64,000 nucleotides of DNA from Longimicrobiales bacterium (lineage in GTDB: Bacteria > Gemmatimonadota > Gemmatimonadetes > Longimicrobiales > Gaopeijiaceae). Below the pieces are notes generated by a model. It ran no database searches, was not told the DNA's origin, and worked only from the letters and a program-made list of their open reading frames with translations. The stretch is taken from positions 2,784,001-2,848,000 of the forward strand of contig OZ220732.1 of assembly GCA_965116905.1 (NCBI GenBank), read 5' to 3'. Made by a program: the position numbers and the translations under genes. Numbering within the stretch: position 1 is the first letter of the stretch; the number at the start of each line of letters is the position of its first letter. Positions 11,775 through 15,885 of the stretch are shown here, one piece after another.

Positions 11775-11838
11775 GGCAACCGAAGTATCGATTGCGGCCT
11801 TGCGCCTCACAAGTGGCGGTGCGCCCACGGGCCGTCCG

Positions 11839-12453
11839 TCAGCCTTCGGACCGGGCGCGCAGGAGGACGTGCAGCGGGTCCTGCGGATCCTCGATGCGCT
11901 TCCTGAGCCGGTTCAGGGCATGGCGGATGTGAGAGCGCACGGTCGCGGGCCTGACGCGCATCAGGCGTGCCGCCTCGGCCGGACTCCTTTCGTCGATCAG
12001 TCTGAGCGTCAACGCCTGCCTCTCGCGGTCGGGAAGGTCGTCGATCGCCTCGCGGACGATGCGATGAAGGGCTTCGTCCTCGGCGCGGTCGAGCGGGTCG
12101 GGTCCCGAGCCGGACGCGTCGGAGACGGCCAGCTCGCCGGCGTAGCGGTCAAGATGCCGGGCGGCGGCCGTTCGGGAGCGGTAGTCGCTCACGCACACGC
12201 TTCGAGTCAGTCGGCCAAGCCACCCCCGAAAGGTCCCCGTCGCCCGAAAGGACTCCGCGGCTGCGTGCACCTTCAGCCAGGTGTCCTGGTACAGGTCGTC
12301 GAGGTGGTCGGGGTCGCGCGCGTAGCCTTTGCATATGGCCCATACCAGGGGACCATTCTCCTCCACGATCCGGCGGGCGTAGGTGCCGCCTGCGATGAAC
12401 CTCGCGGGTACGAACGGCAGGCGCTTCGCGTCTCCGCCGGGGGGACGGGTCAT
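11839..12453 (-). CDS. ECF RNA polymerase sigma factor
   Basis: Sigma2 (DDLYQDTWLKV..FRGWL) and sigma4 (LPDRERQAL..SPAEAARLMRVRPATVRSHI). Confidence 0.9.
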   Translation of the reverse strand: MTRPPGGDAKRLPFVPARFIAGGTYARRIVEENGPLVWAICKGYARDPDHLDDLYQDTWLKVHAAAESFRATGTFRGWLGRLTRSVCVSDYRSRTAAARHLDRYAGELAVSDASGSGPDPLDRAEDEALHRIVREAIDDLPDRERQALTLRLIDERSPAEAARLMRVRPATVRSHIRHALNRLRKRIEDPQDPLHVLLRARSEG

Positions 12454-12484
12454 GGGGTGCGCGGGTTTCGCGAGGGTGGCCGGG

Positions 12485-12925
12485 TCAGGTCCGCGCGGCC
12501 TGCTGGACCGCCAGCGCCCGGTCCCGTCTGCCAACCAGAATCTGCACCCCCGCGGCCGCCGCACCTCCACCCGCGGCCACCAGCGCCAGCTCCAGGATCG
12601 TCGCCCCCGGCTGGAGGTGTCCGCCCGTGGCAAGGATCGCGGCCGCGATCGTCAGAGTTCCCAGCAATGCGGTCACCCACACGTCGACGGGACGAACGAG
12701 CGCCCGCCGGATCCGCAGCTTTGCAATCCTCTTGATGACCAGGTCATTGAGGTGCTCGAGGTGCTCCCGGCTTCCCCGTTGCGGCTTGAAGGCCCTTTTG
12801 GTCGCCCCGATCAAGAGCAGATCGAAACGGCACACCGGGCAGGTCTGCAGGTGTTCCCACGTGCCCGGGTCGATCTCGGTGCCGGGTTCCTGGCTGGTGA
12901 TGCTGAAGATGTCGGGACAGGACAT
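12485..12925 (-). CDS. Putative zinc-binding anti-sigma factor (ZAS) with two TM helices
   Basis: HLQTCPVC (HxxxCxxC) plus an N-terminal Cys, two C-terminal hydrophobic segments, directly upstream of the ECF sigma. Confidence 0.78.
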   Translation of the reverse strand: MSCPDIFSITSQEPGTEIDPGTWEHLQTCPVCRFDLLLIGATKRAFKPQRGSREHLEHLNDLVIKRIAKLRIRRALVRPVDVWVTALLGTLTIAAAILATGGHLQPGATILELALVAAGGGAAAAGVQILVGRRDRALAVQQAART

Positions 12926-12928
12926 GTT

Positions 12929-13774
12929 TCAGATTCCTCGCGAAGGGAAGGCCGGTCTGCCGCTGAACCAGGGGAAGACCGGCAGGTAATCCTGGTGGCG
13001 GGTCACGGCTGCGAGCGCCACGGCTTCGAGGAGGGGCACCGCCAGAGGGAGCCACGCGGCCGCGACACCGGACACCACGACCCAGTCACGGCCCGGATGA
13101 CTGGCGAAAACGGCCGCGCCGAAGAACGCCAGACCTCCGGCCAGTCCGATGGCGAGGCGACCGTTTCGGCGGCTCGGGGGGCGCAGCGCGCCCGTCACAT
13201 GGGATGCGCGAACCCCCAGCACGCAGTTGATGACGGAGAATGCCAGGAGAGCCAGCGGCATGTGCAGCAGGAGCCGGACGCGGTTGGGTGCTGCGGCCCG
13301 GGCCGTGTCGCCCGGGTTGTCCTGTCCCGGGGGATTCGCGTCCAGGAAGCGGAGTTCGCGGAGCCTCCCCGCGGGGGTCCTCGGTCCGAAGGGTCTCATC
13401 TCGGCCAGGTCGGGATCTCCGGCCAGGGCGGCGTGGTCCGCGAGCGGATTGATGATCTCGGACGACGCATAGCTCGCCACCCCGATGACAAGCCCCGCCA
13501 ACACCGCCACCCAGGTGCGTCCAGCCGCCGAGCTTCGTCTCCAGATCGCCACGCCACCGGCAAAGGCGGCGAAGGGCAGCAGGAGGCCCAGCAGGTCGGC
13601 CACGTAGGCGAGCCACATCAGGCCCGACCACGGCTGTGGCTGGGCTACGGCGACGGTGTGAAACACCACGATCGCAGCCACGAGTCCCAGAGTCCAGGCG
13701 ACCGCAACCTTCAGCGCATGGGCCAGCAGCGACATGATGCGGCCGAGTCCGAGGCGTTCGTACCGGATGTTCAT
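12929..13774 (-). CDS. Six-TM membrane protein resembling the LptF/LptG (YjgP/YjgQ) membrane core
   Basis: Three TMs, short loop, three TMs. Motifs LLLPFAAF, SEIINPLA, LHMPLALL, AAAWLP. Confidence 0.65.
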   Translation of the reverse strand: MNIRYERLGLGRIMSLLAHALKVAVAWTLGLVAAIVVFHTVAVAQPQPWSGLMWLAYVADLLGLLLPFAAFAGGVAIWRRSSAAGRTWVAVLAGLVIGVASYASSEIINPLADHAALAGDPDLAEMRPFGPRTPAGRLRELRFLDANPPGQDNPGDTARAAAPNRVRLLLHMPLALLAFSVINCVLGVRASHVTGALRPPSRRNGRLAIGLAGGLAFFGAAVFASHPGRDWVVVSGVAAAWLPLAVPLLEAVALAAVTRHQDYLPVFPWFSGRPAFPSRGI

Positions 13775-13977
13775 GGCTCCGGGCGGCATTCGCGGTCACG
13801 GTCACAGTTCTTGACGAGCCAGCAGCACTCACGGCAACAGTACGCCTTGGCGCCCTCGCCCCAGCAGCAGTCCGACCGCGTGAAACGGGTGAGCAGCGAT
13901 TGTGCCGGCGGCGCAAACAGGGCAACCGCCAGCACAAGGTTGAGAAGAATCAGACCAGCGAGGACCAGCTTGCGCAT
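13771..13977 (-). CDS. Secreted cysteine-rich peptide (68 aa, 8 Cys)
   Basis: AGGAGG 8 nt before ATG, Sec signal MRKLVLAGLILLNLVLAVALFAPPAQS, core DCCWGEGAKAYCCRECCWLVKNCDRDRECRPEP, ATGA coupling to the next gene. Confidence 0.85.
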   Translation of the reverse strand: MRKLVLAGLILLNLVLAVALFAPPAQSLLTRFTRSDCCWGEGAKAYCCRECCWLVKNCDRDRECRPEP

Positions 13978-14014
13978 GGGCCATGCCTCCTGAAGGTGAT
14001 GCGACGCGGTGCGG

Positions 14015-15142
14015 CTACCCTGTCCATTCGGCCAGCCACCGTACCCCGTCGGGGGATCCATGGGAACCGAGCACTCCACGCGGCGTGGCCACGAGGGGCT
14101 CGAAAGAAGGGGGGAATTCGAACGCGTCCACCGCTCCCGAGGTCGTCACGCGCAGCCACCGGCGGCCGTGTCCGAGCGGGTCGGTCCGGTTGTCGAAGAG
14201 CCGGAGCCACGCCGGGCCTCCCGACTGGCAGAGCACGGAGGTCACGAACGGCAGTTCATCCGAGAAGTGCGCCCGCACGTCTCGCGCCATGGCCTCCAGG
14301 TCGATCCCGGCCTCGGCGTAGTTGGGGCCCAGCTCGAGGCGGATCATCTTCTCCAGGTAGAAGACGATGTCCGCCTCCTGAATCGGGGACGGGCTTCCCG
14401 GAATCGGGACCTGGGCGATGGACACTCCGCCGTCGTCCAGCCAGACCAGATCGTGCGAGGCGGGGCGCCACAGCACCAGGTCGCTGCCGCAGGCATCCCA
14501 TAGGGGCACGGGCACGAATTCCCCGGGAGTCTCCCCGGTCGGCCGCATGTGCTCCGAGAAGGCGACGACCTCCCGCCGGGTCTCGAGGGAAAGATCGGCC
14601 CGCACAAGGGAGGCCTCCTGGAAATCGGCCGTGACATCGAGACGGGTGGGCGTGTGGACCACGACCGCGCCCCGTGCATCCAGACGGACGCGGTAGGGAT
14701 CCGCGTAGGAGACGTCGTTGAAATCCCGTCGCCGCGCCCAGGAGGCGCCCTGCAGGCGTTCCGACCGGACCAGCGACATGGTCGCGTCGAAGACCTTGTG
14801 CTGCCTGCTGCCGACGTCCCACACGTGCGCCATCCCGCCATCCGGATCGACCTGCAGCGCGATGGGGAAGACGAGATCCTCCGGACCCTCACCGCGCTCG
14901 CCGCCTCGAAGGACATCGCCCCCGGCACGCTCGATCCGCGTGAGGTACGGAGGGGACGTGTCCAGCACCCATACGGCGTCGGGTGCGGTCGCGATGTCCC
15001 GTATGGCGGTGAATTCCACGCCGGGGAAGGGCGTCGTGAGTGCCTCGGCCGGAATCTCGCGAAACTCGATGGCCGCGTCCGAACTCGCGCAGGCGCTCGC
15101 GACCGCGCAGACGGCGCCAAGCAGCAGGAACCGGGGCCTCAT
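14015..15142 (-). CDS. Putative beta-propeller lipoprotein
   Basis: Lipobox ASAC at residue 18, NHL-like blades (VWVLD, GERGEGPEDLVFP, HVWDVG). Confidence 0.75.
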   Translation of the reverse strand: MRPRFLLLGAVCAVASACASSDAAIEFREIPAEALTTPFPGVEFTAIRDIATAPDAVWVLDTSPPYLTRIERAGGDVLRGGERGEGPEDLVFPIALQVDPDGGMAHVWDVGSRQHKVFDATMSLVRSERLQGASWARRRDFNDVSYADPYRVRLDARGAVVVHTPTRLDVTADFQEASLVRADLSLETRREVVAFSEHMRPTGETPGEFVPVPLWDACGSDLVLWRPASHDLVWLDDGGVSIAQVPIPGSPSPIQEADIVFYLEKMIRLELGPNYAEAGIDLEAMARDVRAHFSDELPFVTSVLCQSGGPAWLRLFDNRTDPLGHGRRWLRVTTSGAVDAFEFPPSFEPLVATPRGVLGSHGSPDGVRWLAEWTG

Positions 15143-15738
15143 GGCCGGTCCTCCGTCGTGACGCGCGGCCGGGCGGCGGGCGGGGTGTCGGCGGCCGGCG
15201 GGGCATCGGCGGCGAGCAGGACGTCGGTGGCGGGCGGTACGGCGGCGGGCGGCAGGGCGGCCACGACGTCGGCCAGTTCATCTCCGTGGCCCAGCGCGAC
15301 GACGCGGCCGTCCCGCAGCGCAAAGACCCACGGCGTGCGGCTGACGAGCGCGTGCTCCCGGCTCCCGAGGCCGAATCGGTCCATTGTCGCCACCGGGACC
15401 CGCCAACCGTGCGCCTCCGCGTGTCCGGCGGCCGCTTCGAGTGGCCCGGGCGCAACGGCGAGGACTCCTGCCGGTCTGCCCGGATCCCGCAGGAATCGTC
15501 CCCACTGCAGGGCAACCTGCCGGGAATGCGCGCACTCGGGATCGAAGGCGAGTACGAGCTGGTACTTGCCGAGCGGGTGGCTCCGGCCGCCGCTGTCGCG
15601 GACCTGGACACCCGAGAGGTCGTCGCCCATCGCGACATGCCCGGCACTCCCCGTTCCCAGGCGGCCGGCAAGCAGCGAGAACTGGAGGGCCGCCAGGGCT
15701 GTCAGCGCGGCGGTGATGGTACTTCCGGATCGGTTCAA
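15139..15738 (-). CDS. Membrane-anchored thioredoxin-like (TlpA/redoxin fold) protein with CxxS
   Basis: N-terminal hydrophobic anchor, LVLAFDPECAHS, RTPWVF cis-Pro motif, TTG start after GGGAG, ATGA coupling to the next gene. Confidence 0.72.
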   Translation of the reverse strand: MNRSGSTITAALTALAALQFSLLAGRLGTGSAGHVAMGDDLSGVQVRDSGGRSHPLGKYQLVLAFDPECAHSRQVALQWGRFLRDPGRPAGVLAVAPGPLEAAAGHAEAHGWRVPVATMDRFGLGSREHALVSRTPWVFALRDGRVVALGHGDELADVVAALPPAAVPPATDVLLAADAPPAADTPPAARPRVTTEDRP

Positions 15739-15753
15739 TGAACTGCTCCCGGG

Positions 15754-15794
15754 CTTCGAAATGGTGGACGTCTGGTCTTCGAAATGGTGGACGT
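15754..15794. repeat. Perfect 18-bp direct repeat in the cassette leader
   Basis: CTTCGAAATGGTGGACGT at 15754-15771 and 15777-15794. Confidence 0.9.
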
Positions 15795-15814
15795 GGAGTT
15801 GCCCCTCTACACTT

Positions 15815-15844
15815 ATATGACAGTTCTCAGAGCAAAAACGTGCA
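15815..15844 (-). promoter_or_regulatory. Candidate ECF-type promoter of the Cys-peptide cassette
   Basis: Minus strand TGCACG-N16-TGTCATAT in a locally AT-rich patch. Confidence 0.45.
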
Positions 15845-15885
15845 AAAGGGGCTCGCGTGGGCCTGCTGCTCCGACCCCGGTCAGG

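Follow-up and report, generated by a model that had tools for sequence, protein, structure and literature searches.

An ECF sigma factor cassette in Longimicrobiales with a predicted secreted eight-cysteine peptide and a predicted LptG-fold membrane protein as likely anti-sigma partner

The cassette between pdxA and holB

The window analyzed here is a 64,000-nt stretch of contig OZ220732.1 from a Longimicrobiales bacterium (GCA_965116905.1, positions 2,784,001–2,848,000), and its subject is a six-gene cassette on the minus strand that encodes, in order, a redoxin, a propeller, a cysteine-rich peptide, a membrane protein with a predicted LptG fold, an anti-sigma factor, and an extracytoplasmic function (ECF) sigma factor. 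Six co-oriented open reading frames (ORFs) with two ATGA overlaps and gaps below 40 nt had been claimed in the original prediction, and all were read directly from the minus strand: the overlaps lie at 15139–15142 and 13771–13774, and the gaps between the other genes are 37, 3, and 31 nt. The thioredoxin-like, membrane-anchored redoxin (15139–15738) has a TTG start and 199 amino acids (aa), including the CxxS-type sequence FDPECAHS. The propeller, a predicted lipoprotein (14015–15142, 375 aa), carries Cys18 behind a hydrophobic leader, and the peptide precursor (13771–13977, 68 aa) has the pattern CC-x8-CC-x2-CC-x5-C-x5-C with predicted cleavage near residue 27. The LptG-fold membrane protein (12929–13774, 281 aa, six helices) is the likely partner of the ZAS-type anti-sigma factor (12485–12925, 146 aa), which contains C3/H25/C29/C32 and two predicted membrane helices and has no sensor domain of its own. 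The last gene encodes the ECF sigma factor (11839–12453, 204 aa; Pfam Sigma70_r2 and r4_2). Ahead of the redoxin gene, a matrix from 33 cassette leaders predicts an ECF −35 element, TTGCAC (15840–15845), and, 17 nt after it, a −10 element, TGTC (15819–15822), both on the minus strand.

The flanking genes, named beforehand as pdxA and holB, were matched by Pfam PdxA and DNA_pol3_delta2; together with the sigma factor, they gave the only clear family matches among the cassette and its flanks (Pfam, NCBIfam). Comparison with four orthologous cassettes (three for the anti-sigma gene) gave a dN/dS ratio under 1 for each of the six genes, which are thus under purifying selection; therefore, the cassette ORFs are not chance. 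Of 25 genomes of the genus, 19 have pdxA and holB side by side and 5 have the cassette between the two genes; in the remaining genome, holB was not found. The copy here is thus an insertion in one subclade. An Rfam scan of the stretch gave no match, and a scan for intrinsic terminators found none, including between the sigma stop codon and holB, which starts approximately 60 nt past that stop (window 11777–11839). Cassette induction may run on into holB, and the upstream surA-like/pdxA operon may supply basal cassette expression. The leader between the promoter and the redoxin start holds an 18-nt direct repeat (15754–15771 and 15777–15794, 23-nt spacing), a recent duplication because a close relative's contig in run X1 lacks the 23 nt present here. 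In that run, the one RNA-labeled run that contains the stretch (also labeled as a sponge metagenome), contig depth was flat across genes, spacers, and both strands and is thus uninformative about transcription.

The LptG-fold protein and its fusions to anti-sigma domains

The membrane protein had been labeled LptF/G-like, and its fold confirms the label. The model, made with 38 sequences, is an all-helical, six-helix membrane fold without strands (predicted local distance difference test [pLDDT] score 88.5). Structure comparison aligned 231 residues with LptG 6mjp_G at Z 18.6 (root-mean-square deviation 3.3); matches to LptG and LptF scored Z 18.6, 17.0, and 16.2, and the next unrelated family scored Z 8.2. 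Foldseek also ranked LptG/F chains first, with E values no better than 0.019. By sequence, PF03739 matched 12 of the 38 homologs of this permease-like family weakly, comparison of the family profile with the single LptF and LptG sequences of the same genome was not significant (2.5% and 0.3%), and a PDB sequence search with the profile produced chance hits only.

The clear LptG fold and the weak PF03739 matches would suit a role in transport, with LptB or another ATPase as partner and the peptide or a lipid as cargo, but the details of the model and of the loci make this very improbable. The β-jellyroll of LptF/G is missing from the model, replaced by a conserved helical loop of approximately 45 residues, and only two residues join helices 2 and 3, between which LptF/G carry the coupling helix that docks the ATPase. 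The gene occurs as a single copy, no ATPase or second permease recurs in the permease loci (surveyed by rough regular expressions and clustering), and the genome encodes a canonical lptF-lptG pair at another site. Family members are also fused to anti-sigma domains, as described below. The membrane protein is probably not a transporter.

The sigma factor comprises regions 2 and 4 only (Sigma70_r2, E 9e-16; r4_2, E 3e-12; TIGR02937 above cut-off). The ZAS label of the anti-sigma factor held, with C3, H25, C29, and C32 each present in at least 90% of 31 homologs; zf-HC2 matched weakly, in 10 of the 31. Four kinds of fusion were found among related loci, which fall into types A, B, and C. The first unites the LptG-fold protein and the ZAS anti-sigma factor in one ORF (L026 from genome G013; P0006 is similar). 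The second, in type B loci, consists of 14 proteins of 360–400 aa with a permease-like N-terminal part (hhalign 87.6% against the permease) and a zinc-less C-terminal domain, helical and with two membrane helices. In type C loci, where a permease-like gene is present without peptide or redoxin, the zinc-less domain is fused to the cassette propeller in an ORF of 550–615 aa directly behind the sigma gene (11 of 12 loci; the twelfth is interrupted). The fourth joins a ZAS anti-sigma factor to a PF17170 propeller, in two clusters (P0319 and P0320). The type B loci have other shared neighbors: an upstream protein of 1100–1200 aa occurs in L090, L103, L104, L105, L167, and L168, and a helix-turn-helix regulator stands beside the fused receptor in eight loci.

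Profile comparison points to a common ancestry of the zinc-less domain and the ZAS anti-sigma factor. With type C members added, hhalign gave 72.8% (E 3e-5, 92 columns); the zinc-less profile scored a median of 7.1 bits on the 31 ZAS proteins versus −1.6 on 88 control two-helix ORFs, the best two of which are the genome's own anti-sigma factors; and the domain matched the anti-sigma factor of genome G511 (E 6e-4). Repeated fusion of one protein to each of two others is the usual sign of a single complex. Given the four kinds of fusion, a single transmembrane sensor made up of the anti-sigma factor, the LptG-fold protein, and the propeller is likely, and fusion to anti-sigma domains makes the latter two proteins look like sensor parts rather than a transporter. 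In a midpoint-rooted tree of 47 hand-chosen rows, the sigma factors of all three types form one group (94/95), and the window sigma factor groups with the propeller-carrying types (98/96). Judged from sequence, this regulatory wiring, one membrane sensor complex with an autoregulated sigma factor, is the part of our interpretation in which we have good confidence.

Conservation of the cassette, the peptide, and the promoter motif

Co-localization in other genomes, together with a conserved Cys peptide, was what the original prediction depended on; the genes do travel together in Longimicrobiales (Gemmatimonadota), and the Cys peptide is conserved. In the window genome, four loci carry an eight-cysteine peptide and three carry the membrane protein. 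Among other genomes, the membrane protein was found in 18 of the 24 that belong to the genus and in none of 16 from other families of the order. Matches to the peptide profile occurred in at least 21 of 401 genomes of the phylum, namely the window genome, 19 of 69 in the family, and 1 of 331 outside it; the scan scored 15 candidates per genome, and these counts are a floor. Searching from the redoxin with a pattern derived from the cassette's own subtype, 40 of 41 loci also carried a peptide, a permease-like gene, a sigma factor, and an anti-sigma factor, with the one miss at a contig end. Sigma and anti-sigma genes adjoin 37 of 38 permease matches, and the peptide lies directly upstream of the permease gene, intact, in 24 of the 38, is broken in 2, and is missing from 12 (one at a contig end). 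Weaker peptide matches led to 21 loci (20 from relatives and one from the window genome); the redoxin is present in 19 of them and the cassette propeller in 13. All six genes together with the promoter motif were found in three genera (the window type, G153, and G511), and more distant redoxin-propeller-peptide trios with other Cys patterns occur in G180, G061, and G031. Global searches returned 73 peptide clusters, 144 redoxin clusters, and 121 permease representatives, with no Pfam domain where these were shown and no name beyond "hypothetical protein". Approximately 60 metagenomic clusters contain the most distant permease homologs, and one genome of this kind, G511, has the full cassette.

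The peptide has the lowest dN/dS of the six genes (0.08–0.23 against the four orthologous cassettes). A variable core had been anticipated; instead, the core is the best-conserved part within the orthologous group, and the leader evolves faster. A hypervariable core like that of ribosomally synthesized and post-translationally modified peptides was rejected on this basis. Between paralogs, the core differs, and this combination of conservation within orthologs and divergence between paralogs is as would be expected of a ligand. Six Cys columns are filled in all 70 aligned peptides and two in 69, and a Tyr precedes the second Cys pair in 60 of the 70. The leader is hydrophobic by eye and contains an Asn (Asn13 here) in 68 of 69 cases; AxA-like sites close many of the leaders, and several homologs have no clear cleavage site. 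A β-hairpin is present in the best of five models (pLDDT 81.8; the other four, 59–77). Fold searches with this 41-residue model found nothing, the model being too small to speak on novelty; a PDB sequence search with the peptide profile gave chance hits only, and the window peptide had no Pfam match except a leader hit at E 0.04.

Eight Cys in approximately 30 residues behind a putative Sec leader, with ECF and anti-sigma genes nearby as for buf1 (PMC11626156), could also describe a periplasmic Cu/Zn buffer that is kept reduced by the redoxin and induced through a metal-responsive ZAS factor, in effect a bufferin minus the MNIO enzyme. Bufferin metal binding needs thiooxazoles according to the same paper, and the absence of MNIO (DUF692) claimed beforehand extends to the genome: PF05114 had no match in an assembly that is 97% complete, and the Caulobacter positive control was matched. 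No metal-transport family appeared among the recurrent neighbors (first 45 clusters, by eye), and the fixed even Cys count, the conserved Tyr and Trp, and the predicted hairpin also speak against a buffer, which we consider improbable. A bufferin locus proper was rejected, with no MNIO, no DUF2282 or BUF_6/12Cys-type precursor match, and no match of the 70 peptide homologs to a bufferin NCBIfam model at E 0.1.

Weak profile matches supported the earlier redoxin and propeller labels. The redoxin motif is F-D-P-x-C-x-H-S, with C69 and H71 invariant in 21/21, and it aligns with thioredoxin-fold active sites (3ewl, E 8e-4; F-x-P-x-C-x-H of the protein disulfide isomerase type), placing CxxC/CxxS at the start of helix 1. 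The first Cys is always kept and the second in about a third of homologs; the resolving position, across 120 homologs, is S in 66, C in 35, T in 11, G in 2, and unread in 6. Such an active site would suit an enzyme that acts as isomerase or chaperone on an exported, disulfide-rich substrate. The same proteins could alternatively make up a redox switch, in which the peptide, tethered by its Asn-bearing helix, and a monothiol redoxin would be sensor subunits that report the periplasmic disulfide state. Most type A redoxins lack the resolving Cys, several peptide homologs have the unclear cleavage sites noted above, and the leader Asn and a conserved Gln in the redoxin membrane anchor are unusual in disposable signal peptides and typical of helix-helix contacts. 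Against this stand the many AxA-like leader ends, a leader that evolves faster than the core, and several divergent paralogs per genome, more than a general redox sensor would need; we regard the switch as rather unlikely. Beside the redoxin in L031, L050, L119, L137, and similar loci, there is a second, more divergent ECF sigma factor, often behind its own motif copy.

The cassette propeller subfamily has invariant C218 and C305 and a PLWDxC motif. PF17170 matched 2 of 18 homologs, weakly (best E 2.5e-4), and the window protein had no Pfam match; comparison with NHL-repeat structures gave E 1e-12 over approximately 60 residues. The protein is predicted to be a cassette-specific six-bladed β-propeller lipoprotein and is likely the extracytoplasmic sensor. 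Elsewhere in the same 4.2-Mb genome, there are 48 matches to the PF17170 six-bladed propeller family.

The AT-rich patch ahead of the cassette was originally taken as promoter-like; no site of sigma-70 consensus was found in it, and it is the conserved ECF-type motif that stands. Of 37 cassette leaders, 33 contain TTGCAC-N17-YGTY, and 3 others have the two elements 18 nt apart. Under the 33-leader matrix, whose training set held near-identical orthologous leaders, the window promoter is the top-scoring site of its genome. A search with the strict pattern found 87 matches, spread over 19 of 41 genomes, versus 2 for a reversed control, and the presence of the pattern agrees with that of the permease gene in 39 of the 41. 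Peptide-less trios and divergent redoxin genes carry their own motif copy; the motif is absent from 24 of 25 leaders of loci with other sigma subgroups (type B, type C, and permease-less), and type C leaders share a different motif. One peptide-less permease-sigma-anti-sigma trio (L035, 4949–6436) lies directly after a radical SAM/SPASM-like gene. ECF autoregulation is common, at approximately 55% (PMC8103513); thus, the simplest reading is that the cassette sigma factor reads this motif.

Eight sites in the window genome exceed 28 bits: four stand before cassette genes, three lie before other secreted proteins, and one has no clear target. The three non-cassette targets (sites 751373, 754709, and 945211) are unrelated secreted proteins with 4–7 Cys, behind which come generic propellers or a DsbA-like-propeller fusion. 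The motif also precedes secreted Cys-rich proteins and propellers in relatives. Sites below 23 bits had no fitting targets; shuffled genomes yield one or two sites above 18 bits each. The sigma factor therefore likely has a regulon wider than the cassette, as far as motif matches can tell. The two islands concerned, L001 (G000 C1 749283–755299) and L002 (G000 C1 945300–948600), encode secreted 4–7-Cys proteins of 65, 148, 93, and approximately 97 aa, each followed by propellers, one of them the DsbA-like-propeller fusion, under the same promoter motif. The site at 394918 was rejected as a regulon promoter; it matches the motif and points against the region of an arsR-like gene with no clear ORF behind it. 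Nearby (G000 C1 394600–394800), a CCC-DGG-CCC-GP-CC stretch follows the arsR-like gene and ends at TGA, either a metallothionein-like ORF or a remnant.

These targets bear on whether the peptide is a signal or an output. With the wiring unchanged, the sensor could read an envelope, lipid, or host cue, and the sigma factor would induce secreted disulfide-rich proteins, either directed at a host or structural, together with their folding enzyme. The same promoter on peptide-less trios, the motif before unrelated Cys-rich proteins and generic propellers in this genome and in relatives, and the 48 PF17170 matches all favor an output, as does the lipid binding of the LptG fold in its known role. 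The peptide gene, however, lies against the permease-like gene or overlaps it in 24 of 38 loci, and in type B it stands ahead of the fused receptor. This position and a core that is conserved rather than diversifying point away from an output, and we hold the output interpretation to be possible yet doubtful.

The proposed mechanism and known systems

We tentatively propose, at somewhat less than an even chance, an autoregulated ECF cassette in which the sensed ligand is the cassette's own mini-protein, exported and folded by disulfides. The sigma factor would transcribe TTGCAC-N17-YGTY promoters, including the one at 15845–15819. The precursor would be exported, and the membrane-anchored CxxS/CxxC redoxin would pair or reshuffle its eight Cys. 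The anti-sigma factor, which has no outside domain, may couple within the membrane to the LptG-fold protein and, beyond the membrane, to the propeller, as the fusions suggest. The folded peptide would then bind the propeller, the conserved loop of the LptG-fold protein, or both, whereupon the anti-sigma factor would free the sigma factor and the loop would amplify itself. To judge from the motif sites, the sigma factor would also turn on the island genes for other secreted Cys-rich proteins and propellers, and peptide-less cassette copies may be listen-only receivers. A ligand role for the peptide, which we put no higher than the proposal as a whole, is in keeping with the placement of its gene against the receptor gene, with sequences that are conserved within paralogs and diverge between them, and with the peptide-less copies as receivers. 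Of the self-contained peptide system first suggested, a conserved unit, a dedicated redoxin, and a likely autoregulated ECF factor stood. A broader scheme, for which our support is more tentative, is peptide communication in Gram-negative, probably host-associated Gemmatimonadota: each cassette would secrete its own four-disulfide mini-protein, detect it via the propeller and an LptG-derived transducer that holds the anti-sigma factor, and turn on the islands of further Cys-rich secreted proteins; paralogs would be separate channels, and peptide-less copies would eavesdrop.

Several observations weigh against this proposal. The cassette propeller is present in just 6 of the 41 redoxin-anchored loci, and the peptide is absent from 12 of 38 permease loci and from all 12 type C loci. 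Five peptide-redoxin-propeller loci (L094, L097, L100, L101, and L098) lack a permease-like gene; upstream of four of them lie genes for an ABC ATPase and a permease, and downstream of such trios a PAS-domain protein and a response regulator recur. The first comparison of the zinc-less domain with the anti-sigma profile was weak (12%), and Pfam assigns the domain to no anti-sigma family. Several fusions still contain the start or signal region that belongs to the downstream gene and may have arisen simply by loss of a stop codon, and type C fusions retain a lipobox-like Cys and might be cleaved. The agreement of the motif with permease-positive genomes is partly circular because the pattern was built from these leaders, and the compared genomes are kin, not independent. 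One of the permease-less loci, L098, has a tandem duplicate.

The gene set had not been recognized as a described system, and no description was found in the literature searched; an ECF group number may already have been assigned. The cassette gives a function-bearing context to four unnamed protein families, among them a lipopolysaccharide-transporter fold apparently turned into an anti-sigma partner; if that is true, the LptF/G fold would here serve signal transduction for the first time. The cassette is also a starting point for explaining the dozens of six-bladed propellers in these genomes, and its peptides add a new, compact disulfide-rich scaffold, of which well over 70 variants occur naturally. 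The regulon can be predicted from the promoter motif, and at 4 kb the entire unit can be rebuilt in a laboratory strain.

Compared with ECF/ZAS systems (PMC8103513), the cassette is alike in its sigma regions 2 and 4, its co-located membrane anti-sigma factor, and a bipartite promoter on its own operon. The sigma domains, the H-x3-C-x2-C motif with N-terminal Cys/His, and the promoter are all present, with the sigma factor assigned to the motif by inference. It differs in an anti-sigma factor without an outside domain, apparently supplied here by the LptG-fold protein and the propeller, and in the secreted Cys peptide and redoxin inside the cassette. With bufferin buf1ABCD and SigF/NrsF (PMC11626156), it shares a small Cys precursor, here with a putative Sec leader, an oxidoreductase, and ECF/anti-sigma control; unlike bufferin, it has no MNIO, another Cys pattern, a thioredoxin-like protein rather than DoxX, and additional propeller and LptG-fold genes. 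The membrane protein resembles LptF and LptG of LptB2FG (6mjp, 8frl, and 9doh) in its six-helix fold (Z 16–18.6, approximately 230 residues) but has no jellyroll, probably no coupling helix, no LptB or partner in its loci, and fusions to anti-sigma domains.

MauD/MauE provide a dedicated redoxin for a disulfide-rich exported protein, a role to which that of the cassette redoxin may be likened, and Bacteroidota NVEALA loci hold small Cys proteins beside PF17170 six-bladed propellers. Neither the peptide nor the redoxin matched Pfam or NCBIfam models of the MauD/MauE and NVEALA types, and the word NVEALA found no paper in the literature searched. In the pyoverdine system FpvA/FpvR/PvdS, an exported product induces its own ECF-driven synthesis, the same logic as proposed here. 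The cassette differs in having no TonB-dependent receptor or FecR domain, and its ligand would be a ribosomal disulfide mini-protein.

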